A stretch of DNA of 64,000 nucleotides from Bacteroidota bacterium (GTDB lineage Bacteria > Bacteroidota > Ignavibacteria > UBA10030 > SZUA-254), in the NCBI GenBank assembly GCA_033854175.1, contig JAWOKN010000056.1, positions 3,736 to 67,735 of the forward strand. The letters run 5' to 3'. Below are positions 3,345 through 63,068 of this stretch, piece by piece; within the stretch, counting starts at the first letter, position 1; every line of letters starts with the position of its first letter. Made by a program: the position numbers and the translations under genes. The notes under the pieces are model-generated. The model worked only from the letters and a program-made list of their open reading frames with translations, made no database searches and was not told the origin of the DNA.

Positions 3345-3360
3345 TGGTGCGCAATTTGCT
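3345..3360 (+). promoter_or_regulatory. Candidate sigma-54 (-24/-12) promoter for the multiheme cytochrome
   Basis: 'TGGTGCGCAATTTGCT' fits TGGYRYR-N4-TTGCW with GG-N10-GC spacing. It lies about 95 nt upstream of the ATG at 3454. Confidence 0.45.
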
Positions 3361-3453
3361 CGAACATATGCCGACAGAACCGCGTCCAGATCGGTCGCGG
3401 GTGCGGTCGAAATACCTCATAACATTGCGACCGGAGAGAGAAGGAGTGCGAGT

Positions 3454-12576: not shown

Positions 12577-12580
12577 CGCA

Positions 12581-14046: not shown

Positions 14047-14057
14047 AGGTACTCCTT

Positions 14058-16669: not shown

Positions 16670-16727
16670 AATATTATCCCTTTCACATTGATACCTGACG
16701 AGCGGGGTATCAGATTTTTAGTCGAGT

Positions 16728-17156: not shown

Positions 17157-17159
17157 AGT

Positions 17160-18533: not shown

Positions 18534-18541
18534 GCTGGTTA

Positions 18542-19660
18542 TCAGGATAAGAGTTTTGAAACTTCGCACGCATTGACTTCAAACCTCCGGGCGATCTCCC
18601 CGCGGGTACACATCCCCTTGAACGTACAGACGCCCTTTGCGAGGCCGGCATTTTCCTGGAGCGCGCCGTCGACGCCCTTCAGTGTAATAAGCTGAAGGTA
18701 AGGCAGAAGGGCGTTGGTCAATCCATAGGTAGCGGTACGGGCGACATTGGCCGGCATATTCGGGACGCAGTAATGAATCACGTCATGCCAGACATAGGTC
18801 GGGGATTCAAGCGTCGTGGGCCGGCTCGTGGCGCAGCAGCCCCCCTGATCGATCGAAGCATCGATAATAATCGAGCCCGGTTTCATGGAAGCGACCATAT
18901 CCTCGCTGATGACATGTGGTGCCCGTTCGGCCTTAATGAGAATCGCGCCGATGACCACATCGGCAAACTGGAGCGCCTTCCGCAAGTTATACTCATTGGC
19001 AACATAGGTCACGACGCGGTAATTGAACCTGTTCTCGAGAGCGCGGAGCTTATTAATATCCTTATCCAGGACGATGACCTCGGCACCTGTGCCGAGGGCC
19101 ATACGGGCGGCGGCCTGGCCCACGGTACCGGCCCCGATGATGACGACAGTAGCGGGCGGGATACCGGTAATACCGCCCATGACAATACCGCGGCCGTTAT
19201 TATGGCTCTCGAGGAACCGTGCGGCGATATTCAGCGTCATCTGGCCCGCGATTTCGCCCATAATCTGGGAAATCGGGACATTGCCGGATTCATCCTCGAT
19301 GAGTTCATACCCGAAGGCGCAGATCCTTTTCTGGAGAAGCTGTTCGAAGACCCTGGTCGGTGAAACGGCCAGATGGAGAAAGCAAAAGACCGACTGACCG
19401 TCGACAAGTTTCTGGCAATCGTTTTCCGTCAGGGAAGAAATTTTCAGGAGAAGGTTGGAGCGGCCGAACACCTCGTCGTTTGAATAGACGATATGAGCGC
19501 CCACCGCCTGGTATTTCTCATCTGAAAAGTGTGACGCCTCGCCGGCATTCTTCTGGATAAACACCTGGTGGCCGCCGCTGGCAAGCGTCTGGACGCCTGC
19601 CGGAGTCAGAGCCACTCTCCGCTCACGCCGCGGATCTTCACTCAAAATGCCAATGTTCAT
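18542..19660 (-). CDS. ald: Alanine dehydrogenase
   Basis: N-terminus MNIGILSEDPRRERRVALTP… plus a Rossmann motif GAGTVGQAAARMALGTGAEV. Confidence 0.85.
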   Translation of the reverse strand: MNIGILSEDPRRERRVALTPAGVQTLASGGHQVFIQKNAGEASHFSDEKYQAVGAHIVYSNDEVFGRSNLLLKISSLTENDCQKLVDGQSVFCFLHLAVSPTRVFEQLLQKRICAFGYELIEDESGNVPISQIMGEIAGQMTLNIAARFLESHNNGRGIVMGGITGIPPATVVIIGAGTVGQAAARMALGTGAEVIVLDKDINKLRALENRFNYRVVTYVANEYNLRKALQFADVVIGAILIKAERAPHVISEDMVASMKPGSIIIDASIDQGGCCATSRPTTLESPTYVWHDVIHYCVPNMPANVARTATYGLTNALLPYLQLITLKGVDGALQENAGLAKGVCTFKGMCTRGEIARRFEVNACEVSKLLS

Positions 19661-20060
19661 GATCTTGAACGCCAATAAAATGATGAGTCCCAGTACCAGT
19701 TTGTGGGGCGTCAATTAACATGCCAGTTCTTTGAGGGTTTTAGGCTGGTTACAAATGAAATTTGAGGAAATGCGGGATTCAAGCTTTCAAGAGTGAGAAT
19801 CGCTCCTGACGGGGCTTTCAGCGGTGATAATCAAAAAACGGCATGAATCAGAAAGATCGGATATCACGCCGGAAGGGATGAAAGAAGGGGAAAAATCCGG
19901 ATACTGGACCTTGGGAAAATTTTCCCGGATGGAAACAAAACAGTGTCTTTCATCGTTTAAAAGTAACAAACCGAAGGATGAAATTTTCAACACCGGGTGT
20001 TTGGAAATGCATCAAAAAAAACAGTACATTGAAAAAATTCTGAACCAGGAGATCCACTAC

Positions 20061-20783
20061 ATGCACAGGGCAGACGCACCACGCACCATAGTCACGACAG
20101 CAATTCTCACACTCATCCTCCTCGTAACAGTGCCTGCGGCGGCACAACTGGGGAGTCCATACAGCATCAACATCTTCGCAGGCTTCTCGCTCCCGGTGGG
20201 AGACTATTCATCCACCTCCGCCAGCTCGGCAAATGATTTTCTCAACGCAAGCGGCAACACGCCCGGTTTCGCGCAACTGGGGTTCAACGGGGGGATAGAG
20301 TACACGCTCCGCATCCACTCGCCCTACGAGATAGGGATACTCGGCAGCGTCAGCGTCAACGGAACCGACGAGGGAGCATTGCGGCGGATATCCTCGGATG
20401 TCAGCTCGAACACCAGCGGCGGGACATGGTACCTTTACAGTGCCCTACTGAGCGGCGGTGTAGGGACCGATTTGACGCCCGAATTGGGCATCCACGGGAG
20501 GATCTACGCGGGATTCACGGGAGGAAGCTCGGCGGAATTCAGCTTCTACAATCTCAACGGGAGCGGCGGGTATGTGATCCAGAAATCGACCTGGGCATCC
20601 ACATTCGGATACGGCATAGGGACGGGGATAACATTGAGCAACTCCTGGGACATCAATCTCCGGTATCTGGCCTCGAATCCGGAATACACATCGAACTGGA
20701 CTGACGGGCGGCAGATCACCGACAAAAAATTCACGCAGCCATCCGGCATCCTGACACTCACGCTGGGATTGATTCTGAAATAG
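20061..20783 (+). CDS. Outer-membrane beta-barrel (porin-like) protein
   Basis: Signal peptide after the ATG at 20061 (MHRADAPRTIVTTAILTLILLVTVPAAAQ), followed by Gly/Ser/Thr/Tyr-rich alternating strands. Confidence 0.55.
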   Translation: MHRADAPRTIVTTAILTLILLVTVPAAAQLGSPYSINIFAGFSLPVGDYSSTSASSANDFLNASGNTPGFAQLGFNGGIEYTLRIHSPYEIGILGSVSVNGTDEGALRRISSDVSSNTSGGTWYLYSALLSGGVGTDLTPELGIHGRIYAGFTGGSSAEFSFYNLNGSGGYVIQKSTWASTFGYGIGTGITLSNSWDINLRYLASNPEYTSNWTDGRQITDKKFTQPSGILTLTLGLILK

Positions 20784-29090: not shown

Positions 29091-29306
29091 ATGGATCATC
29101 GAATGAACGGGGAAATCGTGGAAATCTACATCAGGGACGGGTCGACGCTTGCGAAAGTGCGCGTGGACGGCACCTATTTTCACGTTCCGCTTCTTCTCCT
29201 GATGAACGCCCATGTGGGCGACCACATCATCATCGACGCCGGAATCGCATTAACAAGGATCGAACGGAAGGCAAAGAGCCGGCAGGCTGCAGAACCGGCG
29301 CTGTAG
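29091..29306 (+). CDS. HypC/HupF-like small beta-barrel protein lacking the conserved N-terminal Cys2
   Basis: 72 aa. 'GEIVEIYIRDGSTLAKVRVDGTYFHVPLLLLMNAHVGDHIIIDAGIAL' follows the HypC pattern (…VDFGGV.R.V.L.L…VGDYVLVHVGFAI), but the N-terminus is MDHRMNGE, not MC…. An AAGGAA ribosome-binding site precedes the ATG. Confidence 0.4.
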   Translation: MDHRMNGEIVEIYIRDGSTLAKVRVDGTYFHVPLLLLMNAHVGDHIIIDAGIALTRIERKAKSRQAAEPAL

Positions 29307-29526: not shown

Positions 29527-32202
29527 ATGATGATCGGCACGCTCATATCCCATTACAAAATACTTGAAAAACTCGGCGAGGGAGGAATGGGTGTGGTATA
29601 CAAGGCGCACGACACAAAGCTCGAGCGCGTGGTTGCGCTGAAATTCCCCCCTCAGGCGCTCACGGCCGACCCGGAGGAGAGGGAGCGGTTTTACCAGGAG
29701 GCCCGATCGGCATCGCAGCTTCTCCACCCGAACGTCTGCACGATCTTTGAGATCAACGAATCGGAGAAGCAAATCTATATTGCCATGGAGTATGTCGACG
29801 GCCCGACCCTCAAGAAACGGATTCAGGCAGACAATCCGATGCCCCTGGGAAAATCCCTTGACATCGCCATCCAGATCTGCAACGGGCTTGTTGCCGCCCA
29901 TGAAAAGGGGATCGTGCACCGGGACATCAAATCCGAGAACATACTGCTGACGGCCAGGGGGGAGGTAAAAATCACCGATTTCGGACTCGCCAAGCTCAAA
30001 GGTGCGGAGAAGCTCACGAAAACAGGAAGTACATTGGGCACTGCCGCCTACATGTCCCCCGAGCAGGCGCGTGGTGAGGATGTCGATGCGAGAAGCGACA
30101 TATTCTCCTGCGGGGTGGTACTGTATGAACTCTTCGCCGGCAGGCTTCCTTTCCGCGGAGAACACCAGGCTGCGATACTCTACTCACTGGTGAACGAAGA
30201 GCCCGCGCCCCTGGCGAGGTTCAATGAGCACGTGTCGCCGGACCTGCAGCATATTGTTTCAAAGGCGCTCGCCAAAGACAGGGAGGACCGTTATCAGCAT
30301 GCCGACGAAATGCTTGCCGACTTGAGGCGGGAACGCAAACGCATGGAGTACGCGCGAACCGGTGTAATCATACAGCCAAAAGTGGTTTCCTCCACGCAAG
30401 AAGTCCAAGCGCAGGAAGCCTCAGACCGTTCGGGAGGCACCAAGCGAGTGATATGGGGCGTCGCCGGTGCTGTCATTCTTCTTGTCGCAGCCGGTATTTA
30501 TCTCACGGTCTGGAAACCCGGACCCAATCAGAGCGCGACAAATTCCGCAATCAGCAAGATTGCGGTACTCCCATTCGAGAACATCGGACCATCCGACAAG
30601 GAATATTTTGCGGACGGTCTCACCGACGAGATACGGACAAAGCTCAGTGGGCTTTCGAATCTGGCCGTCATTGCCCGTGCAAGTTCGATGCAGTACAAAA
30701 AGACCACGAAATCCATCTCGGAAATCGGCACCGAACTCAGTGTCGGTTACCTGTTGCAGGGGACCATACGATGGGAGGAAGGAGGATCGTCCCAGAGTGC
30801 TGTTCACCTTTTGGTAAATCCTTCCCTGGTGAAAATCACCGACGGGACGCAGGTCTGGTCGCAGTCATTCGAAGGGACCCTGTCGAGCGTCTTTCAGATG
30901 CAATCCGACATCGCGCAGCAGGTCGCACGCGCGCTCGAGGTGGCATTGAATCCCAGCGACCAGCAAGTCATCACCTCGAGGCCGACCAACAACGCCGAAG
31001 CGTACGATTACTTTTTACAGGGGCAGCAAAAATTGTATTTGCCGACCTCGGCGGACATGAAAGAGGCGCTTCCGATGTTTGAGAAAGCGATCAAACTTGA
31101 TCCAAAATTTGTCGCCGCCTATGCGGATTTATCCCGTGCGTACGCTTTCGCGACATTTCAGGGAATGAGCCCTGACAGCCTCCTTGTGTTATCGAAGAAA
31201 TCGCTTGACAAGGTCAAAGAACTGGAACCAAATTCGTTTCTGGCAAACTGGTCGGAAGGCTACTACTATTATTACGGGTTCAGAGATTACGACCAGGCAT
31301 TACGGCACTTCACCACGGCACTGAATCTCCAGCCCAACAATGTGGACATCATATCCGCGATCGGGTATGTCAAGCGGAGGCAGGGAAAATTCCAGGAAAG
31401 CCGCGATCTCCTCGCCAGGAGCTGTGATCTTGACCCGCAGGCGTGGCGCAACTGGTTCGAGCTCGGCTATGTAGAGCTCGTCATGCGTCAATATCCTCTG
31501 GCGGACGAACACATGAAGCGGGCGCTCCTGGTTTTCGGCAAGGGAAATGTCGCGGTAGCGGCATATCATTCGCAGGCCATCTTCTCCATGAACGGCGACG
31601 TCAGGGGGGCGCAGGAACTCTTCGACCGGGAGGCCGGCGAAAACAGATCGTGGTTATACAAGATGAGGAGTGCTCAACTCCATCTTGCGGGCGGGAATGT
31701 CGGCGCCGCCATAAATGATCTTTCCCGTGCGGTGCTCTCGGAGCCGGACGTGGATTCCACGGTCTACTACATGTTCTCAGGGCTCCTGCATGAACAATCC
31801 GGGCCCCGTAGTGCAGGGCGTGCTTATTTCGATAGTGCAAGAATTCTCGCAGAAAGAACAGTACACAACGCCCCCAATCAGGCCGTGGCTCACATGAATC
31901 TGGGAATCATCCTGGCTCATCTCGGACAAAAAGCCCGTGCAATTGAGGAGGGGGAAAAGGGGGTACGACTGATGCCGCTGGAAAAGGACGCGCTTGATGA
32001 AGGGCCGAACGCACTCTATGAGTTAGCTCAGATTTACGCTCTCACGGGAGAATCTGACGCTGCAATCGACAAGCTTGAACAGATATTGAGCATTCCAAAC
32101 ATGTACTCGGTCTATTTTGTGCAATCCGATCAGGAGCTTGCATCACTTGCGACGCTGCCCCGGTTTCAGAAATTGCTGGAAAAGTACAAAACTGCGCGGT
32201 AA
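29527..32202 (+). CDS. Serine/threonine protein kinase with one transmembrane helix and an extracytoplasmic TPR-repeat domain
   Basis: Hanks kinase motifs (GEGGMGVVYKA, HRDIKSENILL, DFGLAK), a transmembrane helix (VIWGVAGAVILLVAAGIYLTVW), then TPR-like repeats. Confidence 0.8.
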   Translation: MMIGTLISHYKILEKLGEGGMGVVYKAHDTKLERVVALKFPPQALTADPEERERFYQEARSASQLLHPNVCTIFEINESEKQIYIAMEYVDGPTLKKRIQADNPMPLGKSLDIAIQICNGLVAAHEKGIVHRDIKSENILLTARGEVKITDFGLAKLKGAEKLTKTGSTLGTAAYMSPEQARGEDVDARSDIFSCGVVLYELFAGRLPFRGEHQAAILYSLVNEEPAPLARFNEHVSPDLQHIVSKALAKDREDRYQHADEMLADLRRERKRMEYARTGVIIQPKVVSSTQEVQAQEASDRSGGTKRVIWGVAGAVILLVAAGIYLTVWKPGPNQSATNSAISKIAVLPFENIGPSDKEYFADGLTDEIRTKLSGLSNLAVIARASSMQYKKTTKSISEIGTELSVGYLLQGTIRWEEGGSSQSAVHLLVNPSLVKITDGTQVWSQSFEGTLSSVFQMQSDIAQQVARALEVALNPSDQQVITSRPTNNAEAYDYFLQGQQKLYLPTSADMKEALPMFEKAIKLDPKFVAAYADLSRAYAFATFQGMSPDSLLVLSKKSLDKVKELEPNSFLANWSEGYYYYYGFRDYDQALRHFTTALNLQPNNVDIISAIGYVKRRQGKFQESRDLLARSCDLDPQAWRNWFELGYVELVMRQYPLADEHMKRALLVFGKGNVAVAAYHSQAIFSMNGDVRGAQELFDREAGENRSWLYKMRSAQLHLAGGNVGAAINDLSRAVLSEPDVDSTVYYMFSGLLHEQSGPRSAGRAYFDSARILAERTVHNAPNQAVAHMNLGIILAHLGQKARAIEEGEKGVRLMPLEKDALDEGPNALYELAQIYALTGESDAAIDKLEQILSIPNMYSVYFVQSDQELASLATLPRFQKLLEKYKTAR

Positions 32203-32381: not shown

Positions 32382-32619
32382 AAATAAACGCATTCATAAA
32401 TACTTGTTTTGAAATTATTTACACATCTTCAGCAGCCTTCGCCCGGTTTTCTGTAAAATAATTCATCAACTCTTCTTCATCTCAATCCTGAAAAAAAGTT
32501 TCACTCCCCCATCTTCTTACATATTCACCACTTAGCATCACGGTTTTTTCCATAGTTACTGGCATGATATTTACATAAGTGATGGGTGAATAAATAAGCA
32601 CGCAAGGACAGAAGGAGCA

Positions 32620-33303
32620 GTGAAAATGACAGTCATATTCGTAATAGCGACGATTATATTCTTCCTCACGCTTGATTGGGTTGTGAGGCGGATAAGGGCA
32701 AGAAAAGCAGCACCGGTAACTGCGGTACACCCGTCGGCATATCCGATACGTGTACCGGAGGGGATATTCTTCACCAGATCGCACACCTGGCTCAATCTTT
32801 TCCCCTCGGGGAAAGTACGGCTCGGAATCGATGATTTTGTGGGCCGCATGGTAGAAAACCCGCAGATCATTTTCCTCAAGAAAAGCGGCGAGAGTATCTC
32901 CCGTGGAGAGCCCCTGTTGACGATGAAGGAAGACGAGCATCTGCTGACCGTCAGATCGCCGATCGACGGGGAGATCGAATCGATCAACGAGGAACTCCCG
33001 CGGCATCCCGACCTTTTGAAGGACCTCCTTTTCAGTGACGGCTGGGCATACACGATCAAGCCGAGAAAGTTCTCTGAAATCAAGGGCTTACTTCTCGGGA
33101 CAGAGACGAGGGAATGGATGCGGGCGGAATTCGGCCGTCTGCGTGATTTCTTTGCGGGGATCTCTCACAACGGCACAATAGCCCCGGCCCTCCTGCAGGA
33201 CGGCGGGCCGCCGATGGCGGGCGTCATGAAAACGATGGACGACGCGGTGTGGCAGAATTTCGAGCATGAGTTCCTCACGATCGAAGAATCTGAAAGGGCA
33301 TAG
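32620..33303 (+). CDS. Membrane-anchored GcvH-fold (glycine-cleavage H-protein-like) protein with the lipoyl-lysine position substituted
   Basis: N-terminal transmembrane helix followed by RRIRARK, so the domain is cytoplasmic by the positive-inside rule. A gapless alignment to GcvH (…LPEVG…ESVKAASDIYAPVSGEI…GW.FKIK) places Glu at the lipoyl-Lys position, with a Lys 3 residues earlier. Confidence 0.5.
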   Translation: MKMTVIFVIATIIFFLTLDWVVRRIRARKAAPVTAVHPSAYPIRVPEGIFFTRSHTWLNLFPSGKVRLGIDDFVGRMVENPQIIFLKKSGESISRGEPLLTMKEDEHLLTVRSPIDGEIESINEELPRHPDLLKDLLFSDGWAYTIKPRKFSEIKGLLLGTETREWMRAEFGRLRDFFAGISHNGTIAPALLQDGGPPMAGVMKTMDDAVWQNFEHEFLTIEESERA

Positions 33304-33305
33304 CG

Positions 33306-34124
33306 ATGGCGAGTGCGAAGGCGATGTTAATCGACCTCACGATGTGCATCGGGTGCAATTCGTGTCAGGATGCCTGCAAGAAGGCAAACGGTTTACCCGA
33401 AGGGGAGGAACAGCAGTTATCGGCAACCGCCTATACGGCGCTCAATGAATACAACGGCGTCTATGTCCGGAGGATGTGTCAGCACTGCATCCAGCCGACC
33501 TGTGCATCGGTCTGTCCCGTTGGTGCGTTGAAAAAGACGCCCGAGGGGCCTGTCCTCTACGACGAATCGAAGTGTATCGGCTGCCGGTACTGCATGCAGG
33601 CATGTCCGTTCCAGGTGCCTAGGTACGAGTGGAGCAGCACCTATCCGAGAATCCAGAAATGCCGCTTCTGTGCGGAGAGGCTTGCGAAGGGGATGCCCAC
33701 GGCATGTTCGGAGGCATGTCCGACGGGTGCGACAAAATTCGGCGACCGGGACGAACTGGTGCGCGAGGCCTACCAGCGGATATCCGCGGAACCGGGGAAA
33801 TACATCGACAAGGTCTACGGCCTCCAGGAAGTCGGAGGGACGTCAATACTGTACCTCTCCTCGGTTCCGTTCGAGCAGCTGGGATTCAAGACCCAGCTGG
33901 AGTCCAACGCGCTGCCGCTCCTCACGTGGAACGTGCTGTCGAAGATTCCGAACGTGGTCAGTGTCGGCGGAGTGGCGCTCTTCGGCATCTGGTGGATCAC
34001 CAACCGCCGGATGGAACTCGAGAAAGAGCGAAAAAACGGCCGGGCAAACGGTACGGCGCCGGGGGATGACCATCATTCCCGGAAAGAACAAACCCAACAA
34101 ACCGAGAATGGAGAGAGAGTATGA
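33306..34124 (+). CDS. 4×[4Fe-4S] ferredoxin-type subunit of the NrfC/HybA/PsrB/DsrO family with a C-terminal transmembrane helix
   Basis: Four Cys clusters (CIGCNSCQDAC; CQHCIQPTCASVCP; CIGCRYCMQACP; CRFC…CSEACP). No Tat (RR) signal. C-terminal helix VVSVGGVALFGIWWI. Confidence 0.8.
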   Translation: MASAKAMLIDLTMCIGCNSCQDACKKANGLPEGEEQQLSATAYTALNEYNGVYVRRMCQHCIQPTCASVCPVGALKKTPEGPVLYDESKCIGCRYCMQACPFQVPRYEWSSTYPRIQKCRFCAERLAKGMPTACSEACPTGATKFGDRDELVREAYQRISAEPGKYIDKVYGLQEVGGTSILYLSSVPFEQLGFKTQLESNALPLLTWNVLSKIPNVVSVGGVALFGIWWITNRRMELEKERKNGRANGTAPGDDHHSRKEQTQQTENGERV

Positions 34125-35323
34125 AACGCAGACTTCAGCAACTGACACTCTGGAAGGTCGTCGCCGGGCTGATCATCCTCAGCGGCCTCATATCAACCTA
34201 CGTCCGTTTCGCAAAAGGGCTGGGGGCGGCGACGCACCTGAGCGATCAATTCCCGTGGGGATTATGGATCGGGTTTGACATCCTGTGCGGCGTGGGGCTT
34301 GCGGCCGGGGGGTTCACGCTGGCTGCGATCGTCTACATCTTCAACATCAGGCGGTTTGAAGCGATCATCCGGCCGACCATCTTGACGGCATTCCTCGGCT
34401 ATCTCCTTGTGATTGCCGCGCTGATGTTCGATCTCGGGCGGCCGCTGCAGATATGGCATGCGATCATCATGTGGAACCATCACTCGGTCATGTTCGAGGT
34501 CGCGTGGTGCGTCATGCTCTACACGACAGTTCTCGCCCTTGAATTTTCGCCGATGCTCTTTGAAAAATTCAGGATGAACAACACGCTGAAGACATTCCAC
34601 AAAATCAGCATACCGCTCATTATCCTCGGGGTGATCCTCTCGACGCTGCACCAGTCGTCGCTCGGCTCGCTCTACCTCATCGTGCCCGAGAAGCTCTACG
34701 GCCTCTGGTATTCCGCCTATCTGCCGGTATTCTTCTACGTCTCGGCGATCGCGGTCGGCTGTGCGATGGTCATCTTCGAATCCATCCTGAGTTCCCGGGC
34801 GTTCCGGAAGAGCCTGGAAACGAACCTCCTTGCGGAGCTGGCCCGCATCAGCGTCGTGGCGCTCGCCGTTTACGCCACGATGAAGATCGTCGACTTGAAG
34901 GACCGCGACGTCATCAGCCTCCTCTTCCTCCCCCGCGCCGAGACCTATTTTTACTGGGCTGAGATCACCGTCGGGGTCATCGCACCGATCATACTTTTCT
35001 CCATCAGAAAAGCCCGTGAGAGTCAGACGGGGTTATTCGCCGGGGCCACGATGATCATCACCGGGTTCATCATGAACCGTCTCAACATCAGTCTGACGGG
35101 GATGGAAGGCTGGGCCGGTCTTTCCTACTTCCCGTCATGGATGGAAATTTCCGTCACCCTCACCATCGTCACGGTGGGGTTCATTGCATTCCGGCTTGCG
35201 GCCAAATATCTGCCGGTGTTCAAGCCCGAACTGAACGTTCCCGAAAAGGAATTCGCACACCCGATCGTCGAGGATCTCCACAGCGTCTCATCGTCGCGGG
35301 AACGCTCGATGATACTGGAATAA
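34121..35323 (+). CDS. NrfD/HybB/PsrC/DsrP-family polytopic membrane subunit (quinone-interacting)
   Basis: About 10 predicted transmembrane helices with NrfD-family N-terminal helix signatures. The start overlaps the Fe-S subunit stop by 4 nt. Confidence 0.8.
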   Translation: MKRRLQQLTLWKVVAGLIILSGLISTYVRFAKGLGAATHLSDQFPWGLWIGFDILCGVGLAAGGFTLAAIVYIFNIRRFEAIIRPTILTAFLGYLLVIAALMFDLGRPLQIWHAIIMWNHHSVMFEVAWCVMLYTTVLALEFSPMLFEKFRMNNTLKTFHKISIPLIILGVILSTLHQSSLGSLYLIVPEKLYGLWYSAYLPVFFYVSAIAVGCAMVIFESILSSRAFRKSLETNLLAELARISVVALAVYATMKIVDLKDRDVISLLFLPRAETYFYWAEITVGVIAPIILFSIRKARESQTGLFAGATMIITGFIMNRLNISLTGMEGWAGLSYFPSWMEISVTLTIVTVGFIAFRLAAKYLPVFKPELNVPEKEFAHPIVEDLHSVSSSRERSMILE

Positions 35324-35328
35324 TTGTC

Positions 35329-36087
35329 ATGAACGAGAATCAAAAAAATTACACAATCATCCCTGAAGGAGACTCCCGGTGTGTCTGGATGTCGGCCGGG
35401 ATCCTCAGCTACCAGCTCTGCAACCGCGCATTCGACTGCGACGCATGTCCGCTCGACATGGCGATGCGGCAGCACTTCCCGCGACCCGAGGGGGAGAAGG
35501 ATGAGGCGGCGCCAGGCAGGGAGCGTGAGGAAACAGAACTCCGCGGCGCGTACAGTTACACGGCAACGCATTTCTGGGTAAAGTCGATCTCCACCTCGCT
35601 CTACCGTGTGGGACTTGAACCGGGGATAGCCCACGCATTATTCGTCCCGCGGACCATCGTCTTGCCCGCCTCGGGTGAAACGCTCCAGGCATCGCAGCCC
35701 TGTCTCTGGTTCGTGATGGAGGCCGCGACCGTCCCCTTCGACGCATTCGCCGACGGCGTGGTTGTGACGCAGAATGTGCTCTTGCCGGAGCGGCCCTACA
35801 AAGTCCATTACCATCCGTACGACCAGGGATGGCTCTTTGACATGAAGTTCGACGCAGCGGGGGGTGAGCCGGATCTCCTGACCGCGGTCCAGGCGGAGAA
35901 ACTCTACGGCAGGGACCAGAAACTCTTCCGTGACAGGCTCCGCGACACGCTACAGACCGCGCCGGCTGGAGCGACACTCCAGGACGGCGGACAGCTTTTG
36001 AAAAATCTCCCTGAAATGCTCGGACCGAAGAAATACTTCGATCTCATCGAGGAGATCTTTCTGAAAAGGGGTGTCACAAAAAAATAA
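35329..36087 (+). CDS. Cys4 N-terminal domain fused to a GcvH-fold domain with the lipoyl-lysine position substituted
   Basis: N-terminal 'CVWMSAGILSYQLCNRAFDCDACP', then 'YTATHFWVK…GLEPG…LPASGETLQASQPCLWFVMEAATVPFDAFADGVVV…PYDQGWLFDMKF'. A gapless GcvH alignment puts Ala at the lipoyl-Lys position. ATG at 35329. Confidence 0.5.
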   Translation: MNENQKNYTIIPEGDSRCVWMSAGILSYQLCNRAFDCDACPLDMAMRQHFPRPEGEKDEAAPGREREETELRGAYSYTATHFWVKSISTSLYRVGLEPGIAHALFVPRTIVLPASGETLQASQPCLWFVMEAATVPFDAFADGVVVTQNVLLPERPYKVHYHPYDQGWLFDMKFDAAGGEPDLLTAVQAEKLYGRDQKLFRDRLRDTLQTAPAGATLQDGGQLLKNLPEMLGPKKYFDLIEEIFLKRGVTKK

Positions 36088-36332: not shown

Positions 36333-37982
36333 ATGAAGGCATTCCGTTCGCTCAGTGTGAGGGTATTTGCGGGGTCATTTCTCCTCCTTGTGACCCTCCT
36401 GGGGCTCTATTCCTATTTTGCGATAAAGTTTCACACCGAACAGATGATGGAGATCGTCCTGGGAAACGCAAGCCGCATCAGCGACATCATCAAGAACTCG
36501 ACCCACTACAGCATGCTCCTCAACAGGAAGGAGGACGTCTACCAGACGATCCTCACCATCGGCAAGGAAAAGGGGGTTGAAGGGATACGGATTTACAACA
36601 AGCGGGGAGAAATCATGGCCTCCTCCCGCACCGAAGAAAAACTGCAGATTGTCGACATGCATGCTGAAGCCTGTTACGTCTGCCATGAGAAGGGAAAACC
36701 CCTGGAATCGCTCGCATCGGACAACAGGATGCGGATCTACACCTCCCCGAAGGGGTACAGGGTACTGGGTTTGATCAACCCCATCCACAACGAGCCAAGC
36801 TGTTCGAATGCCGATTGCCATGCTCATCCGCCTGATAAAACCATACTCGGTGTACTCGACGTTCGGATGTCGCTGGAAAACGTCGACACGGCAATCGCCG
36901 AAGCGCACGCCAAGATGATCAGCTGGGCGGTCGGGGGAGTTCTCCTTGCATCGCTCCTCATCTCGGTCCTCCTCTACAGAACCGTGCATCGGCCCGTCAA
37001 GCGGCTCACGCTGGGGACGCATGAAGTCTCCTCCGGCAACCTCGATCTCCGGATACCCATACACTCGAAGGACGAACTGGGGCAGCTTGCCGAATCGTTC
37101 AATTCGATGACGACCTCATTGCGCAACCTCATTGAAGAGAAAAACACCTGGTCGCGCGAGCTGGAGGAGCGGGTCCGTGAAAAAACCGCCGAGTTGAAGC
37201 ACATTCACGAGCAGATCCTGCAGATTGAAAAGATGACATCGCTCGGGAAGCTCGCGGCGACCGTTGCGCACGAACTGAACAACCCCCTGGAAGGGATCCT
37301 GACCTACGCGAAGCTCCTGGCGAAGCAGCTCAGGAAAGCCGAATTCTCTGCGGACCGGTCAAAGGAATTTCTCGAGGAACTCAATCTCATCATCCAGGAA
37401 ACGGACCGGTGCGGAACGATCGTGAAGAACCTCCTCCTCTTTTCCCGGAAGCAGGTCGGCGAATTCGCGCTTGCGCCTGCGCGGCAGATCGTGGAGAAGG
37501 CCCAGCGTCTCGTGGATCACCACTTCCACATCTCCAACGTGAAATTCGAGGCCACGTACGCGCCTGAGGACGTGTCGCTCATGTGCGACGAAATGCAGAT
37601 CCAGCAGGCCTTGATTGCGCTCTTTGTCAACGCGGTTGAAGCCATGCCGGGGGGCGGCACACTGCGCGTCGATGTCTCGCAGCGTTCGAAGGATGACAAC
37701 ATCATCCTCCGCATTTCGGACACCGGTACGGGGATAGCGGAGGAGGATCTCCACAACATCTTCGAACCATTTTTCACAACAAAAAAGGAGGGTCAGGGTG
37801 TCGGCCTCGGCCTCTCGGTTGTCTACGGCATCGTCGTCCGTCACGGCGGCACGATCAGTGTGGAGTCGAGTCTCAACAAGGGAACGGCATTCACGCTGAC
37901 CTTCCCGGCGCTTGAGCGGAGCACCAAGGGAATCCCGGAGCCGGAGGCGAAAAAATCACCCATTGATCCACACTATGCATAA
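36333..37982 (+). CDS. Sensor histidine kinase with a periplasmic domain carrying heme-c-type motifs
   Basis: Transmembrane helix 1 (FAGSFLLLVTLLGLY), then a ~150-aa periplasmic domain containing 'CYVCH' and 'CSNADCH', then helix 2 and HAMP. The H-box is HELNNPL and the HATPase has a G-box (DTGTGI…GQGVGLGL). Confidence 0.8.
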   Translation: MKAFRSLSVRVFAGSFLLLVTLLGLYSYFAIKFHTEQMMEIVLGNASRISDIIKNSTHYSMLLNRKEDVYQTILTIGKEKGVEGIRIYNKRGEIMASSRTEEKLQIVDMHAEACYVCHEKGKPLESLASDNRMRIYTSPKGYRVLGLINPIHNEPSCSNADCHAHPPDKTILGVLDVRMSLENVDTAIAEAHAKMISWAVGGVLLASLLISVLLYRTVHRPVKRLTLGTHEVSSGNLDLRIPIHSKDELGQLAESFNSMTTSLRNLIEEKNTWSRELEERVREKTAELKHIHEQILQIEKMTSLGKLAATVAHELNNPLEGILTYAKLLAKQLRKAEFSADRSKEFLEELNLIIQETDRCGTIVKNLLLFSRKQVGEFALAPARQIVEKAQRLVDHHFHISNVKFEATYAPEDVSLMCDEMQIQQALIALFVNAVEAMPGGGTLRVDVSQRSKDDNIILRISDTGTGIAEEDLHNIFEPFFTTKKEGQGVGLGLSVVYGIVVRHGGTISVESSLNKGTAFTLTFPALERSTKGIPEPEAKKSPIDPHYA

Positions 37983-37997: not shown

Positions 37998-39344
37998 ATG
38001 AACAACGATATATCCATACTCATTGTCGACGATGAAAAGGTCGTCCGCGAATCCCTCTCGAAGTGGTTCAAGGAAGACGACTTCATCGTGGGCGCATCAG
38101 AAAACGCGGCTGAAGCCCTGAAACAGCTCCAGGTGCGGAAATGGGACATCATTCTCCTCGACATCAAAATGCCGGGGATGGACGGGATGGAGTTACAGCA
38201 GCGAATCCGGGAGATCGACCCCGGAGCGACGATCATCTTCATCACGGCGCACGCCTCGGTCGACACGGCGGTCCAGGCCCTGAAGGCGGGGGCGTTCGAT
38301 TACATCGCGAAGCCGATCGACCCCGACTACCTGTCGCATCTGATCCAGAACGCCATCAAGCAGCGGATCCTGACGGGAGAAAACATCCGTCTGAAGGAGC
38401 AGATCACCGAATTCGCGAAAGTCGATGAGATCATCGGCGACTCCCCGCAGATGAAGAAGGTCTTCGAACTGATCGAAACGGTGGCAAAGACCGACACGAC
38501 GGTCATGATCCGGGGCGAAAGCGGAACGGGGAAGGAGCTCATCGCGCGGGCGATTCACGGCAACAGCGAACGGCGGTATTTTCCCATCGTCGCCATCAAC
38601 TGCGGGGCATTGCCGGAGGGAATACTGGAAAGCGAACTCTTCGGTCATGAGCGGGGTGCGTTTACCGGGGCGCAGTACAGGAGAAAGGGAAAAATCGAGC
38701 TGGCCGACGGCGGCACATTATTTCTTGACGAGGTCGGCAACATCGGGATGAAGACCCAGATGGACCTCCTCCGTGTAATCGAGACAAAGCAATTTTCGCG
38801 TGTCGGGGGAAACGAGCTGATCAAGGTGGACTTCAGGACCATCTGCGCGACAAACAGGGATCTCGAGAAGGCCGTTCAGGAGGGCACCTTCCGTGAAGAC
38901 CTCTATTACCGTCTCAACGTCTTCTCCGTCCTCGTCCCCCCCTTGCGCGAGCGGAAGTCGGACATCCCCCTGCTGGCAAATTACTTTTTGAAAAAATACT
39001 CGCGATCGATGGGGAAGCCGATCGTGACCATCTCCTCGGACGCGATGGATCTGATGGTCAAATACAACTGGCCCGGGAACATCCGCGAGCTGGAAAACGC
39101 GATAGAGCGGGCGATGGTGGTCGGAAAGCCCCCCTGCATCAAGGCGGTGGATCTGCCGATACAGTTCTCCGATCTCATTGCGGCACCTTCGCTCGGATCT
39201 CTGGCATCGATGGAAAAAAGCCACATCGCCGAGATCCTCCGGATGAACAACTGGAACATCTCCCGGTCCGCGGAAGTCCTGCAGATCGACCGGGTCACTC
39301 TCTACAACAAGATCGAAAAATATGGCCTGAAAAAGCCGCAGTGA
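37998..39344 (+). CDS. Sigma-54-dependent response regulator (NtrC family)
   Basis: Receiver domain (LIVDDE…D54-like 'ILLDIKMPGMDG') plus an AAA+ sigma-54 activator (GESGTGKE, 'ESELFGHERGAFTGA') and a C-terminal HTH. Confidence 0.9.
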   Translation: MNNDISILIVDDEKVVRESLSKWFKEDDFIVGASENAAEALKQLQVRKWDIILLDIKMPGMDGMELQQRIREIDPGATIIFITAHASVDTAVQALKAGAFDYIAKPIDPDYLSHLIQNAIKQRILTGENIRLKEQITEFAKVDEIIGDSPQMKKVFELIETVAKTDTTVMIRGESGTGKELIARAIHGNSERRYFPIVAINCGALPEGILESELFGHERGAFTGAQYRRKGKIELADGGTLFLDEVGNIGMKTQMDLLRVIETKQFSRVGGNELIKVDFRTICATNRDLEKAVQEGTFREDLYYRLNVFSVLVPPLRERKSDIPLLANYFLKKYSRSMGKPIVTISSDAMDLMVKYNWPGNIRELENAIERAMVVGKPPCIKAVDLPIQFSDLIAAPSLGSLASMEKSHIAEILRMNNWNISRSAEVLQIDRVTLYNKIEKYGLKKPQ

Positions 39345-39880
39345 CGACAGCCATCCACATCATGACGACGGCGTCGCACCCGGTAACCGATCTCGGACAC
39401 ATTTCACACACCATACAGAGGATATTCAGCCTACCGGTCGACGTGGTCAAGGGGAGTTTAAACCCGGAGCGTGCGTTCGACAGCTCCCGCCGTCAGTACA
39501 ATTCCACAGCACTCATTGCGCACATCCTCTCCTCCAACGGGGGTGACGGGAGGAAAATCCTCGGGCTTGTGGATGTCGATCTCTTCATCCCGATCCTCAC
39601 CTTTGTCTTCGGCGAGGCACAATTCACCGGCTGTGTTGCTGTCGTCTCCTCCTTCCGTCTTGCGAACCAGTTCTACGGGCTTGAACACGATCCGATCTTA
39701 CTCCGTGACCGGGTCGAAAAGGAAATCGTGCATGAGCTCGGCCACACATTCGGTCTCCACCACTGCAGGCATTTTGACTGTGTCATGCGCTCCTCGACCT
39801 ATGTGGAGGAGATCGACTTAAAAAAGGTGGAGATGTGCGGCACATGTTCGGAAAAACTCCAGCTCATCACCGCGCACTAG
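39341..39880 (+). CDS. amzA: Archaemetzincin-like zinc peptidase (M54)
   Basis: 'HELGHTFGLHHC…DCVM' plus C-terminal 'CGTCSEKL'. The gene overlaps the activator stop by 4 nt. Confidence 0.7.
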   Translation: MTTAIHIMTTASHPVTDLGHISHTIQRIFSLPVDVVKGSLNPERAFDSSRRQYNSTALIAHILSSNGGDGRKILGLVDVDLFIPILTFVFGEAQFTGCVAVVSSFRLANQFYGLEHDPILLRDRVEKEIVHELGHTFGLHHCRHFDCVMRSSTYVEEIDLKKVEMCGTCSEKLQLITAH

Positions 39881-40097
39881 ACGATGCGCGAGCGAGCGCG
39901 CGCGGGTGCGGAAAAACAGAGATTTCACCCCTGCAAAAATCACATTGCAGGCTTTCATTTTTGATAAAAACGCATCCGTTTTTTGAGGTTTCAGAGTTGA
40001 TTCGGCACATTTTGGCTTATGCCTCAATGGAATGATTCTTGCATTTTACTTTGCGGTTTACTTCAATCTTTTACTTTCTCGAAAGGACATTTGAGCC

Positions 40098-43000
40098 ATG
40101 CCAGATGTAGCGGCAGGAAGAACATTACGGCAGAAGGTCACGCTTGACGGCAACGAAGCGGCTGCCTTCTCCGCGCACAAATTAAACGAAGTCATAGCAA
40201 TCTACCCCATCACCCCCTCCTCCAACATGGGGGAATGGTCGGACGAATGGTCGTCGCTCGGGAGAAAAAACCTCTGGGGGACGGTACCTCTTGTCGTCGA
40301 AATGCAGAGTGAAGGGGGAGCTTCGGGGGCGGTCCACGGGGCGCTGCAGGCCGGCGCGCTCTCGACCACGTTCACATCGTCACAGGGACTCCTCCTGATG
40401 ATCCCGAACATGTTCAAGATCGCGGGCGAACTGACCTCGACCGTCTTCCACATCGCGGCGCGCACGGTAGCGACCCACGCCCTCTCCATATTCGGCGATC
40501 ACAGCGACGTCATGGCGGTCCGGTCGGCGGGCTGGGCGATGCTGGCTTCGAACTCGATACAGGAGATCATGGACTTTGCCCTGATTGCGACGGCGGCGAC
40601 GCTTGAATCGCGTGTTCCGTTTGTCCATTTCTTTGACGGATTCCGGTCATCGCACGAGGTGATGAAAATCGAACAGCTTTGCGAGGACGACTTCCGGGCG
40701 ATGATGGATGACAAGCTCATCTTCCAGCACCGGGCGCGGGGGCTCTCGCCGGAGCATCCCGTCATGCGCGGATCGGCGCAGAACCCCGACGTCTTCTTCC
40801 AGGCCCGGGAAACCGTGAACCCCTACTATCTCGCATGTCCCGCGATCGTCCAGAAAACGATGGACAAATTCGCGCGTGTTGTCGGCCGGAAATACGAGCT
40901 CTTCCAGTACGTCGGTGCGGCCGATGCTGAGCGGATCATCATCATGATGGGATCCGGTGCGGAAACCGCCGAGGAGACGGTGGAGTATTTGAACCGGAAA
41001 GGCGGCAAGGTGGGATTACTCAAGGTCCGGCTCTTCCGGCCCTTCTCCATCGAGCATTTTTTGAAGGCGCTCCCCTCCTCGACCAAGTCGATTGCGGTAC
41101 TCGACCGGACGAAGGAGCCGGGAAGCACAGGGGAACCGCTCTACCAGGACGTTACCACAGCATTAAGCGAAGCCTTTGCCGGCGGCACGTCGCCCCTCAC
41201 GTCGTTCCCGAAAATCATCGGCGGCCGATACGGCCTCTCGTCGAAAGAATTCACACCGGCGATGGTGAAAGCGGTCTACGACGAACTTCAGAAGCCGGCC
41301 CCCAAAAACCACTTCACCGTCGGGATCAAGGATGACGTCACCCACACGAGTCTGTCGTACGACGCGAGTTTCACGACCGAAGCGGACGATGTGATCCGGG
41401 CCATCTTCTACGGTCTCGGAGCGGACGGGACCGTGAGTGCGAACAAAAATTCAATCAAGATCATCGGCGAGGACACCGACAATTTTGCGCAGGGGTATTT
41501 CGTCTACGACTCCAAGAAATCCGGATCGACGACCGTCTCCCATCTGCGTTTCGGACCCCGTCCGATCCACTCGACCTATCTGATCTCGCAGGCAAATTTC
41601 GTCGCATGTCATCAGTGGTTCTTCCTCGAAAAATACGACGTTTTGCAGCCCGTCATCCAGGGCGGAACGTTCCTTCTGAACAGCTCGTTCGGGCCCCAGG
41701 AAGTCTGGGACAACCTGCCGGTCAACATCCAGAAGCACATCATCGAGAAGAAGCTCAAATTCTACGTCATCGACGCCTACAACGTGGCGAAAGAAACAGG
41801 GATGGGCGGAAGGATCAACACCATCATGCAGACATGTTTCTTCGCCATATCCGGTGTACTCCCCCGGGAGGACGCCATCAAGGCGATCAAGCACTCCGTC
41901 GAAAAGACCTACGGCAAGAAGGGGGAGGATGTTGTCAGGCAGAACTTCATGGCCATCGACAAGACGCTGGCCAACCTCTTCGAGGTCAAGGTACCCTCGA
42001 AGGTCACGAGCACGATAACGATGCCCGACACCGTATCACCGAAGGCGCCCAAATACATCCGGGAAGTCACGGCGGAAATCATCGCGGGTTTCGGTGACAG
42101 GCTCCCGGTGAGTTCGATGCCCGTCGACGGGACATTCCCGGTCGGATCGGCGCAGTGGGAAAAGCGAAACATTGCTTTGGAGATTCCGGTATGGGAACCC
42201 GAAATCTGCATACAGTGCAACAAGTGCATCCTGGTCTGTCCGCACGCAACCATACGGACCAAGGTCTTCGATCCGAAACTCCTTGGGGGCGCGCCCGCGA
42301 CATTCAAGTCGATCGACTTCAAGGGGATGGAATACAAGGGTATGAAATACTCCATCCAGGTCGCCCCGGAAGACTGTACGGGGTGCGGGCTCTGTGTGGA
42401 CATCTGTCCTGCGAAGAGCAAGACCATGACCAAGGTCAAGGCCATCAACATGAAACCGCAGCCACCGATACGCGAGGCCGAGCGTGACAACTACGACTAC
42501 TTCCTGTCGCTTCCGGAAGTCGACCGGCGGACCGTCAAGGTTGACAACATCAAAGGATCGCAGTTCCTGCAGCCGCTCTTTGAATACTCCGGGGCATGTT
42601 CGGGCTGTGGCGAGACACCCTACGTAAAACTCGTCAGCCAGCTTTTCGGCGACAGGTGTGTTGTAGCAAATGCGACCGGTTGTTCCTCCATCTACGGCGG
42701 CAACCTCCCGACCACACCATGGACGGCGAACAAGGACGGAAGGGGGCCGGCATGGTCGAATTCACTCTTTGAAGACAATGCGGAATTCGGGCTCGGCATG
42801 CGGCTGACCATTGACAAGCACACCGAGATGGCGCGGGAGCTCGTGAAAAAGCTCTCAACATCGATCGGTGAAAACCTTGCCACGGCGATCCTCAATGCCA
42901 ATCAATCCGACGAAGCCGGCATCCACGAGCAGCGCGAGCGGGTACAGTTCCTGAAGGACAAGCTGCGCGAGCTTGCCACCCCTGATGGCAACAATCTCCT

Positions 43001-43733
43001 CACCATCGCCGACAATCTTGTCAAGCGGAGCGTCTGGATCATGGGTGGGGACGGCTGGGCATATGACATCGGGTACGGCGGGTTGGATCACGTGCTTGCC
43101 TCGGGGCGGAACGTCAACATCCTCGTCCTCGACACGGAAGTCTACTCGAACACAGGCGGTCAGATGTCGAAGGCCACATTCCGGTCGGCGATTGCGAAAT
43201 TCGCGGCCGCAGGAAAACCGACGGCAAAGAAAGACCTGGCGATGCTCGCCATGACCTATGGAAACGTCTACGTGGCGAAGGTCGCGATGGGGAGCAACGA
43301 TCTGCAGACCGTCCGGGCATTTCTGGAAGCGGAAGCCTATGACGGACCCTCGATCATCATCGCCTACAGCCACTGCATCGCGCACGGGATCAACATGACA
43401 CGGGGAATGCAGAACCAGAAGCTTGCGGTTGAGAGCGGTTACTGGCCGATCTTCCGGTACAATCCGATGCTGGAGCGGGAAGGAAAGAACCCGTTCAAGC
43501 TCGACTCCAAGGCACCCCGGATACCACTGCAGGAATTCACGCAGCTGGAGACCCGGTTCAAGATGCTCGAGAAGAGCTATCCCGAACGCGCAAAGCAACT
43601 GAGCGCGCTTGCCCAGAAAGACGTCTATCTCCGCTGGAAAGTCTACGAGCATCTGGCAAAAGAAGACGGCGATGGTGCGGCGCCGGAGGGGCAGCAGACA
43701 AAGAAACCCACAACCATGGGAGAGACGGTCTAG
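40098..43733 (+). CDS. nifJ: Pyruvate:ferredoxin (flavodoxin) oxidoreductase, homodimeric type
   Basis: 1211 aa with PFOR domains I–VI, ferredoxin-like Cys clusters ([12 protein letters not shown]; [12 protein letters not shown]) and a TPP domain ([13 protein letters not shown]). Confidence 0.9.
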
Positions 43734-45230: not shown

Positions 45231-45256
45231 AATATCGGATAAATCTATCCGATATT
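45231..45256. promoter_or_regulatory. Perfect 11-bp inverted repeat operator-like site immediately after the Rrf2 gene stop
   Basis: AATATCGGATA-AATC-TATCCGATATT. The core recurs upstream of feoAB at 7704..7729. Confidence 0.45.
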
Positions 45257-45522
45257 GGCACAGATGTTGCACTACTAGAGCTGAAGAAATACAAAGGCCG
45301 GTTCTTCCCTCTGTATTAGAGACCTTTTTGATCATCAGAAGAATCCCTTTTTTAAGAATGAGAAATCAGCAGTTTACGGCTATAAGAAGTGACACCGTGC
45401 CCCCTCCTTCCGCTGCATTTGCCGTTGCACCGCAAAATGGACTATCCCCGTATAAAGCCGAAGGCGCCAGGTCCGGGCGTCTGAGTATAAAAAAGCTCTC
45501 ACCCGCGCTCCGCAAACCGAAA

Positions 45523-46578
45523 ATGGGTTACCGGAACGAAACAGGCATACGCCGAATCCTCCTGAGGCTCAGGGAAGATTCACAGTTCCTCCGTTCGGTC
45601 ATACAGACAGCGTTCCTGCTGCTTTGCATCTGGATCGGGATAGAGTTCTATTTATTCGTGAAATGGGGTGCCTCGGGAGGTGTGGAGGCCTATCATATGC
45701 GGCCTCCCGGTGTGGAAGGATTTCTGCCGATCAGCGCTCTGATCAGCCTGAAATATTTCCTGCAGACCGGCATCATCAACAGCGTCCATCCCTCGGGATT
45801 ATTCATCTTCGCAGCGATTCTGGTAATAGGATTTTTCTTTAAAAAAGCCTTCTGCAGCTGGCTCTGTCCGATCGGCACAATAAGTGAATCCCTCTGGACC
45901 TTCGGCCGGAAACTCTTCGGGAAAAATATCGTCCTACCCCGATGGCTCGATTATCCGCTCCGTTCCATCAAATACCTGCTCCTGTTGTTTTTTGCCTACA
46001 TCATCTGGAGCATGAGCATCGATGGCCTCCAGTTTTTCATACAAAGCCCGTACAACCAGGTAGCAGACGTCAAGATGTACTACTTTTTCGCACGGATCAG
46101 CACCTTTGCCCTCTGGACCATCATCATCCTTGCGATCCTGTCGGTCTTCATCAAAAACTTCTGGTGCCGGTATCTCTGTCCCTACGGAGCGCTCCTGGGC
46201 ATCACCGGATTATTCAGTCCGTTAAAGATCACGCGGAATACGACAACATGCATCGACTGCGAACTCTGCACGAAAGTCTGTCCGGCCAGCATCAGGGTCC
46301 ACGCGCTGAAGAAGGTGAGAAGTGATGAATGCATGAGCTGTCTTGAATGCGTGCAGATCTGTCCGGTAAAAAACACACTTGAAGTTCAGCCCCCCGCGGG
46401 GAACGCGAAAGTCCCCGGATGGATCTTCGGGCTTCTCGTCGCCGGGGTATTCGTCGGGATCACCGGTCTTGCGATGCTCGCCGGGCACTGGCAGAATTCA
46501 ATCACAAAGGCAGAATACCTGAACCACTTCCGGAACATCGAATCCCACGTCTATTCCCATGAAGACGCGATCCGATAA
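45523..46578 (+). CDS. NapH/MauN/NosR-like polytopic membrane protein with ferredoxin-type and CxxCP motifs
   Basis: 'FCSWLCPIGT', 'WCRYLCPYGALLG', 'CIDCELCTKVCP' and 'CMSCLECVQICP'. The start was taken at the ATG at 45523; the ORF is open from 45328. Confidence 0.65.
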   Translation: MGYRNETGIRRILLRLREDSQFLRSVIQTAFLLLCIWIGIEFYLFVKWGASGGVEAYHMRPPGVEGFLPISALISLKYFLQTGIINSVHPSGLFIFAAILVIGFFFKKAFCSWLCPIGTISESLWTFGRKLFGKNIVLPRWLDYPLRSIKYLLLLFFAYIIWSMSIDGLQFFIQSPYNQVADVKMYYFFARISTFALWTIIILAILSVFIKNFWCRYLCPYGALLGITGLFSPLKITRNTTTCIDCELCTKVCPASIRVHALKKVRSDECMSCLECVQICPVKNTLEVQPPAGNAKVPGWIFGLLVAGVFVGITGLAMLAGHWQNSITKAEYLNHFRNIESHVYSHEDAIR

Positions 46579-63061: not shown

Positions 63062-63068
63062 AAGAATT

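Follow-up and report, generated by a model that had tools for sequence, protein, structure and literature searches.

Membrane subunits of the NrfD type are usually read as anchors of catalytic enzymes, and H-protein folds as lipoyl carriers. The locus described here, on the forward strand of contig JAWOKN010000056.1 from a Bacteroidota bacterium, encodes both without their usual partners. It consists of four genes within a 64,000-nt stretch of that contig (the window, whose positions are used for all coordinates): g1 and g4 code for GcvH-fold proteins, g2 for an iron-sulfur (Fe-S) protein, and g3 for an NrfD-type membrane subunit. Among the described relatives of the g2/g3 pair are HybA and HybB of Escherichia coli, the electron-transfer arm of hydrogenase-2 (group 1c [NiFe]). 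As in that system, an Fe-S protein that is tail-anchored and has four cluster motifs is combined with a cofactor-less NrfD subunit of 10 predicted transmembrane helices, and the likeness extends to the predicted orientation, to five of the six quinone-site residues, and to most proton-channel residues of g3. Unlike HybA, g2 has no twin-arginine translocation (Tat) signal; no hybO or hybC gene lies near g2/g3, whose neighbors are GcvH-fold genes and the genes of a two-component system. Another example is HmcB/HmcC of Desulfovibrio, which provide the best-scoring named NCBIfam models for both subunits. For g2 the highest scores are those of HmcB (254.3 bits, cut-off 420) and HybA (198.7 bits, cut-off 263), and for g3 those of HmcC (341.8 bits, cut-off 550) and HybB (299.4 bits, cut-off 450), all of them under the equivalog cut-off. 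In Desulfovibrio, hmc is followed by the response regulator gene rrf1 and by rrf2, and an Rrf2 gene likewise lies downstream in the window. The locus differs from Hmc in that the window holds no HmcA, D, E, or F, so that both a haem wire across the membrane and an HdrD-like subunit in the cytoplasm are missing; an HmcA/TmcA-like multihaem cytochrome occurs only in paralogous gene sets of related loci (L011, L020, L021, and L024). Modules made of an Fe-S protein, a HybB-like subunit, and a cytochrome c have also been described (PMC10924467) and were compared together with Hmc.

The closest solved relatives of g2 are PsrB and, above all, FdnH, the β subunit of formate dehydrogenase-N (1kqf_B, E = 1.3e-28). 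Like g2, FdnH is tail-anchored and lacks a signal peptide (PMC10924467), but it is co-exported with the adjacent Tat-bearing FdnG, and no such partner gene stands beside g2. Such hitchhiking on an adjacent Tat-bearing protein is the way in which tail-anchored Fe-S proteins without a signal are known to be exported (PMC10924467). For SoeABC, an NrfC/NrfD-type pair without Tat export has been proposed (PMC8076601); in contrast to g3, SoeC is expected to be inverted, and no molybdopterin SoeA is found here. As for g1 and g4, they share the H-protein fold and a gapless alignment through the lipoyl hairpin with the H protein of the glycine cleavage system and with LbpA of the sHdr system. Their family differs from these proteins in that it lacks the lipoyl lysine, carries an extra membrane helix or a four-cysteine (Cys4) motif as well as an extension with the sequence LQDGG, and has relatives fused to receiver or kinase domains; neither gcvT/gcvP nor sHdr genes are present here. 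The combination of g2/g3 with GcvH-fold proteins appears to be undescribed, as a first-pass annotation of the same DNA had supposed: no paper was found on NrfD together with GcvH, on GcvH-like proteins together with a response regulator, or on an H protein together with HybA/HybB.

Gene g1 extends from a GTG at 32620 or, more likely, from an ATG at 32626, which is better positioned behind an AGGAG, to 33303, and codes for an N-terminal membrane helix, a GcvH-fold domain, and a C-terminal helical extension with LQDGG. It is followed on the same strand by g2 (33306-34124), a HybA/HmcB/FdnH-type Fe-S protein with 16 cysteines that ends in a membrane helix and a conserved charged tail; by g3 (34121-35323), a HybB/HmcC-type NrfD subunit with 10 predicted transmembrane helices in the canonical N-in orientation; and by g4 (35329-36087), a soluble protein with the Cys4 motif, a GcvH-fold domain, and the LQDGG extension. 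The listed open reading frame of g4 begins at 35137, but the ATG at 35329 agrees with all homologues. The unit outlined in the first-pass annotation is real, since Pfam and NCBIfam profiles assign g1 and g4 to GCV_H (Pfam E = 6e-13 and 6e-9, respectively), g2 to Fer4_11, and g3 to NrfD. Its gene content and tight packing stand, and of the spacing given there (3, 4, and 6 nt) only the two gaps are to be corrected, by one nucleotide each: g1 and g2 are separated by 2 nt, g2 and g3 overlap by 4 nt, and 5 nt separate g3 from g4. Taken by themselves, g2 and g3 are an ordinary-looking quinone-linked Fe-S membrane module, of the HybA/HmcB type and the HybB/HmcC type.

Together, these four genes make up the first half of a conserved island of eight genes. 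In the window the order is g1, g2, g3, g4, a sensor kinase with two haem motifs, a σ54 response regulator, and an archaemetzincin, and many relatives have an extra g1-like gene; in about 30 loci the order is one to three g1-like genes, Fe-S, NrfD, g4, sensor kinase, σ54 regulator, and archaemetzincin. The synteny persists down to 33-39% identity of g4, far beyond chance. Among GTDB representatives the g4 family was found in 24 species, all of them metagenome-assembled genomes labelled Ignavibacteria/Bacteroidota, Eisenbacteria, or Acidobacteriota. The proposed link to the neighboring σ54 two-component system proved to be 100% syntenic, g4 being accompanied by the kinase and the regulator in every locus with downstream sequence (in L028 and L035 the pair lies on the opposite strand). 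The sensor histidine kinase (36333-37982, forward strand) has two transmembrane helices around a periplasmic domain of ~165 aa, followed by HAMP, HisKA, and HATPase domains. The CxxCH and Cx4CH haem-c motifs of the periplasmic domain are invariant, and the kinase is predicted to carry two c-type haems; both motifs are also retained in a paralogous kinase of L011, L021, L024, and L028. The next gene on this strand (37998-39344) codes for the NtrC/AtoC-type σ54-dependent response regulator. The best reading of the island, which we put forward tentatively, is that of a periplasm-facing HybA/HybB-like quinone module whose cytoplasmic face is coupled to GcvH-fold signaling adaptors and which is linked to a haem-sensing kinase and its σ54 regulator.

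GcvH-fold proteins and their proposed role in two-component signaling

The alignment of g1 and g4 with E. coli GcvH is gapless across the lipoyl hairpin. The column of Lys64 is occupied by Glu in g1 and by Ala in g4, and the latter keeps a Cys at the K-7 column. This agrees with the earlier description of two GcvH folds devoid of the lipoyl lysine, the second with a nearby Cys, and the whole family behaves likewise: among more than 60 of its members in related loci, no Lys is conserved at the hairpin tip, and g4 homologues usually show [DE]GGT[LF] at this place. To judge from the alignment, g1 and g4 cannot be lipoylated at the canonical position. A shifted lipoyl site was also considered for a group of g1 paralogues (g1b) with a Lys one position past the lipoyl column, and was rejected because Arg substitutes for it in orthologues; since the basic residue alternates between Lys and Arg in this group, lipoylation is excluded there.

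The fold itself has been well predicted for g4. Its AlphaFold model has a mean pLDDT of 76, with most of the GcvH core (residues 70-215) above 90, and matches solved H proteins in a Foldseek search of the PDB with E values of ~1e-9 and target-normalised TM-scores of 0.8-0.9. Ahead of this core lies the motif C-x11-C-x5-C-x2-C-P, whose four cysteines are invariant in 112 representatives (50% identity) and which is present in 118 of the 148 top representatives of the g4 family; some relatives have it in tandem, as in P0206, where four such Cys-rich motifs precede a single GcvH fold. The Cys of g4 at the K-7 column (Cys125, ~35701-35703) is replaced by His in Eisenbacteria-type homologues (QAHLW, ATHFW; homologues in L014, L019, L025, L027, and L028), a type of swap that is typical of metal ligands. 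The family is not small. A word-indexed search had given just 19 clusters of g4, and this apparent rarity was corrected by an exhaustive profile search, which yielded 751 clusters (50% identity, E <= 1e-30). All its members are unnamed, hypothetical, or automatically named "glycine cleavage system H protein," a label that is very probably a misannotation.

The two GcvH-fold proteins of the unit are paralogues, with a common C-terminal helical extension in which LQDGG is nearly invariant. In g1, neither a conserved Cys or Lys nor a cofactor motif has been found. Its helix is predicted to have an N-out, C-in topology, with an RRIRARK stretch directly after it, and the positive-inside rule together with homology predicts that both g1 and g4 are cytoplasmic. 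The GcvH domain of g1 would be located in the cytoplasm because homologues with the same helix carry a receiver domain, which is necessarily cytoplasmic. These homologues are encoded in a paralogous set of genes (L011, L020, L021, and L024; positions 1823-6961 in L021) that contains an Fe-S protein, an NrfD subunit, a 13-haem HmcA/TmcA-like cytochrome, a paralogous kinase, a receiver fused to a GcvH fold (Response_reg plus GCV_H, E = 3.9e-25 and 3.1e-14), and a second such fusion preceded by a transmembrane helix (E = 1.1e-29 and 1.1e-17). Only the two receiver-GCV_H fusions of this set are seen on the short contig of L022. In these five loci, the fusions are encoded directly 3′ of the paralogous kinase. 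Another fusion protein, P0208 (505 aa; L080, 528-2045; found in two independent samples), consists of the Cys4 motif, the GcvH fold, and the LQDGG extension followed by HisKA and HATPase_c domains. Because of these receiver and kinase fusions, and of the obligate synteny with the kinase/σ54 pair, the GcvH-fold family appears to belong in two-component signaling, where its members may serve as input, output, or adaptor. The view that g1 and g4 are H-protein-like carriers finds no support, because conserved Cys or Lys residues are missing from g1 and the electrons of the periplasmic clusters have no haem subunit by which to cross the membrane to the cytoplasm; moreover, the homologues are fused to receiver and HisKA/HATPase domains.

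Orientation and export of the Fe-S/NrfD pair

The membrane subunit g3 was compared with E. coli HybB by aligning 24 NrfD homologues with the latter, defining the ten transmembrane helices, and counting Lys and Arg in each loop. The loops on the N-terminal side contain 19 of these residues in g3 versus 7 in the opposite loops; the counts are 18 versus 5 in HybB and 19.5 versus 6.8 in the NrfD partners of Tat-bearing Fe-S subunits. Thus, g3 is predicted not to be inverted but to lie in the membrane in the usual way, so that its quinone site and its docking face for the Fe-S protein are periplasmic. When the lists of HybB quinone-site and channel residues were taken from Calisto and Pereira (PMC8076601), g3 was found to keep five of the six periplasmic-side quinone-site residues and most of the proton-channel residues, the conserved HybB residues being D58, D109, S129, E133, S190, R89, Y99, E148, H184, E291, and R329. 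A search of PDB sequences with g3 gave no match.

The 16 cysteines of g2 form four ferredoxin-type cluster motifs, as read from the sequence, and its single C-terminal hydrophobic helix is followed by NRR, whose counterpart in HybA is VRRNTKND. Only four codons lie between the in-frame upstream stop and the ATG of g2, and therefore there is no room for a signal peptide. The signal peptide is missing in 20 of the 24 related Fe-S genes that were scanned (g2 and those of 19 other lineages). On the other hand, a textbook RRxF[VL]K Tat signal is present on the Fe-S subunit of seven orthologous clusters with the same gene context (L010, L011, L020, L021, L024, L027, and L029). In the signal-less type, loss of the signal coincides with a longer conserved cytoplasmic C-tail and with an adjacent upstream g1 orthologue, which ends at most 44 nt 5′ of the Fe-S gene in all 18 loci that can be examined there. 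The Fe-S protein g2 probably faces the periplasm, because an Fe-S domain in the cytoplasm would be opposite the conserved periplasmic-side quinone site. The first-pass annotation had called this subunit cytoplasm-facing, which is made unlikely by the Lys/Arg bias and the quinone-site residues of g3, by the NRR tail of g2, and by the Tat-bearing orthologous clusters. Under the periplasm-facing reading, the export route of the signal-less g2 is unexplained. A scan of the 64-kb window for Tat motifs returned false positives only and no Tat-signal protein, and a stricter scan of the related loci found no adjacent carrier; the latter is weak, since it also missed known Tat-bearing Fe-S genes. The locus also exposes a problem of biogenesis: g2 is tail-anchored and lacks a signal, yet the subunit with which it pairs in the membrane requires it to be in the periplasm.

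Weighing the explanations for the island

According to the reading favored above, g2/g3 would connect redox partners in the periplasm to the menaquinone pool by electron exchange, the candidate partners being cytochromes, possibly a hydrogenase, and possibly the haems of the kinase itself. The membrane helix of g1 would tether this protein beside the g2/g3 complex, g4 would hold a metal or Fe-S site at its Cys4 motif, and both would act as cytoplasmic adaptors through which the adjacent kinase is informed of the state of the module or of the redox state of the cytoplasm. Via the σ54 regulator, this kinase would then act on transcription, with PFOR (pyruvate:ferredoxin oxidoreductase) or OFOR and neighboring genes as likely targets. 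The whole would be a respiratory-chain-linked sensory unit rather than a carrier-dependent oxidoreductase. This suggests a new family of signaling domains and a wiring of the state of the respiratory chain into the σ54 control of central metabolism (PFOR/OFOR). A bolder formulation, which we consider doubtful, is that the GcvH fold has been recruited as an unrecognised two-component module (kinase-fused input, receiver-GcvH output, and tethered adaptor) that physically couples a HybB-type quinone/proton module to a kinase with two haem motifs, so that an entire respiratory-type complex acts as a receptor and senses the quinone pool or periplasmic redox conditions; g2 would also reach the periplasmic face without a Tat signal of its own or an adjacent carrier, perhaps aided by g1. 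Several points weigh against the sensory unit. The fusions of the GcvH fold occur in homologues and not in this genome, and the contacts of g1 and g4 with g2, g3, or the kinase are inferred. The N-terminal Cys4 region of g4 is modeled by AlphaFold with low confidence. The absence of a signal peptide on g2 together with that of a Tat-bearing partner gene nearby is a real difficulty for its periplasmic location. The σ54 site upstream of g1, through which the adjacent regulator might control the operon, is weak and not conserved, and the PFOR/OFOR neighborhood is not universal, as it is missing in L033, L034, L035, and L037.

Alternatively, g2 and g3 might be an ordinary anchor that, like HybA/HybB, passes electrons to quinone on behalf of a periplasmic [NiFe] hydrogenase or of a cytochrome network encoded elsewhere, with g2 hitchhiking on a Tat partner, g1 and g4 as assembly or structural accessories, and the two-component system regulating expression. 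Although we find it unlikely, this explanation deserves serious attention. Among the named models, those of HybA and HybB rank second for g2 and g3, and the paralogous sets have their 13-haem cytochrome gene after the NrfD gene. Hitchhiking of signal-less Fe-S proteins is known from FdnH, the closest solved relative of g2, and from an Fe-S/HybB-like pair beside a Tat [FeFe] hydrogenase (PMC10924467). Moreover, hydrogenase maturation genes are recurrent neighbors of the island: a genuine hypE (TIGR02124, 462-478 bits) lies directly upstream of it in L003, L036, and L038; on the same side, L009 and L013 have hypF-C-D-E, L024 has hypE, and both the window and L001 have a HypC-like gene. The HypC-like gene of the window (29091-29306, forward strand; Pfam HupF_HypC, E = 6.7e-7) is a HupF/HypC-like paralogue of hydrogenase chaperones that has also been gene-called in L031, and that in L047 and L048 stands directly upstream of a HybO-like [NiFe] small-subunit gene. 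Against this explanation, tblastn with E. coli HybO, HybC, HybD, HybE, and HypA detected no hydrogenase structural gene in the window or within ±10 kb of ~30 related loci (L001-L038), and the known hitchhikers have an adjacent carrier gene. Within the 64-kb window neither a hydrogenase nor a molybdopterin or Tat-signal protein was found, and the earlier statement that no catalytic subunit is adjacent holds for the window as well as for the ±10 kb around the related loci. The other possibility raised at that time, a catalytic partner encoded elsewhere, has fared unevenly: hydrogenase structural genes were not found, and the hyp genes speak in its favor, so that a hydrogenase partner may be encoded elsewhere. 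A metagenome scan with HypF as query gave 41 loci, some of them with HybO/HybC-like genes, and none contained or adjoined the island, which leaves the link to a hydrogenase indirect; the downstream gene was checked in a single one of these hydrogenase operons (L058), where the large subunit is followed by a cytochrome b anchor. Nor does the ordinary anchor account for the fusion of GcvH-fold relatives to receivers and to a kinase core.

Two further explanations concern the GcvH-fold proteins. It is improbable, in our view, that the operon joins two independent functions, with g2/g3 as a stand-alone quinol-linked module and g1/g4 as two-component parts only (a split sensor and its partner) that have no physical or functional link to g2/g3. 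In its favor, g4 is the protein most tightly tied to the kinase and regulator, P0208 joins the architecture of g4 to a kinase core, and in L022 and L025 g4 directly adjoins GcvH-fold genes, without intervening genes for Fe-S or NrfD proteins. However, the short gaps and the overlap in the window point to translational coupling, g1 has a membrane helix, its orthologue ends close before the signal-less Fe-S gene in every examinable locus, and the paralogous sets again group Fe-S, NrfD, kinase, and GcvH-fold genes. Even less probable is the model of the first-pass annotation, in which the Fe-S subunit faces the cytoplasm and electrons move between the quinone pool and non-lipoylated H-protein-like carriers or the ferredoxin of PFOR. 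This model would fit the lack of a signal peptide, or of room for one, in g2 and 19 other lineages, the predicted cytoplasmic location of g1 and g4, the frequent presence of PFOR/OFOR in the neighborhood, and the precedent of SoeABC for a cytoplasm-facing NrfD complex (PMC8076601). It is at odds with the Lys/Arg bias of g3, which equals that of HybB and is not inverted, with the conservation of the periplasmic-side quinone-site residues, with the charges around the C-terminal helix of g2, which predict an Fe-S domain outside, with the Tat export of the Fe-S subunit in orthologous clusters, and with the lack of any conserved Cys, Lys, or cofactor motif for electron carriage in g1.

σ54-type sites and surroundings of the unit

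A weak and uncertain σ54-type promoter-like site, TGGCAT-N5-TTACA (32560-32575, forward strand), is situated 45-50 nt ahead of g1. Apart from the window, only L008 has it; L001 keeps the -24 element (TGGCAC), with a degenerate -12 element. A conserved σ54 promoter before g1 was therefore rejected, the site being missing from most other loci. Further σ54-like sites have been found elsewhere in the window. The sequence TGGAAT-N5-TTGCA precedes the PFOR gene (site at 40028-40043, forward strand), and the same sequence is found at 28927, before the orphan HupF/HypC-like gene that ends at 29306. A perfect consensus, TGGCAC-N5-TTGCA (45256-45271), lies ~70 nt upstream of a gene for a NapH/MauN-like membrane ferredoxin (45328-46578; Fer4_5), and a similar site is located ahead of its NapH-like orthologue in L001. 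Similar σ54-like sites also precede OFOR genes in several loci. The control of a por operon by a σ54 regulator has a precedent in LurR/DVU3023 of Desulfovibrio (PMC6456213).

Downstream of the σ54 regulator, the island ends with the archaemetzincin gene (peptidase M54; 39341-39880, forward strand; Pfam E = 3e-23; NCBIfam archmetzin 162 bits, cut-off 145), which follows the regulator in nearly all loci. The listed open reading frame shares 4 nt with the regulator gene, and the public gene call begins 21 nt further downstream. A literature search on archaemetzincin together with σ54 returned nothing relevant. The PFOR gene (40098-43733, forward strand) comes next, and PFOR, or a four-subunit OFOR plus Rrf2, is frequently found after the island. 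Upstream of the unit, the HypC-like gene is separated from g1 by a gene (29527-32202) for a Ser/Thr protein kinase that has a transmembrane segment and a long TPR region; it does not occur at this position in the closest relative, L001. The only multihaem gene of the window (3289-5205) lies 27 kb from the unit and codes for a 638-aa cytochrome with nine CxxCH motifs, MtrC/MtrF-like domains, and a C-terminal sorting domain for type IX secretion, which makes it a candidate for extracellular electron transfer. Finally, two regions of the window (11791-20783 and 61078-63094) are dense in fermentative and central-carbon genes, including those for a second OFOR, a malic enzyme-PTA fusion, acetyl-CoA hydrolase/transferase, alanine dehydrogenase, PPDK, glutamate dehydrogenase, cytochrome bd, and PTA plus acetate kinase.

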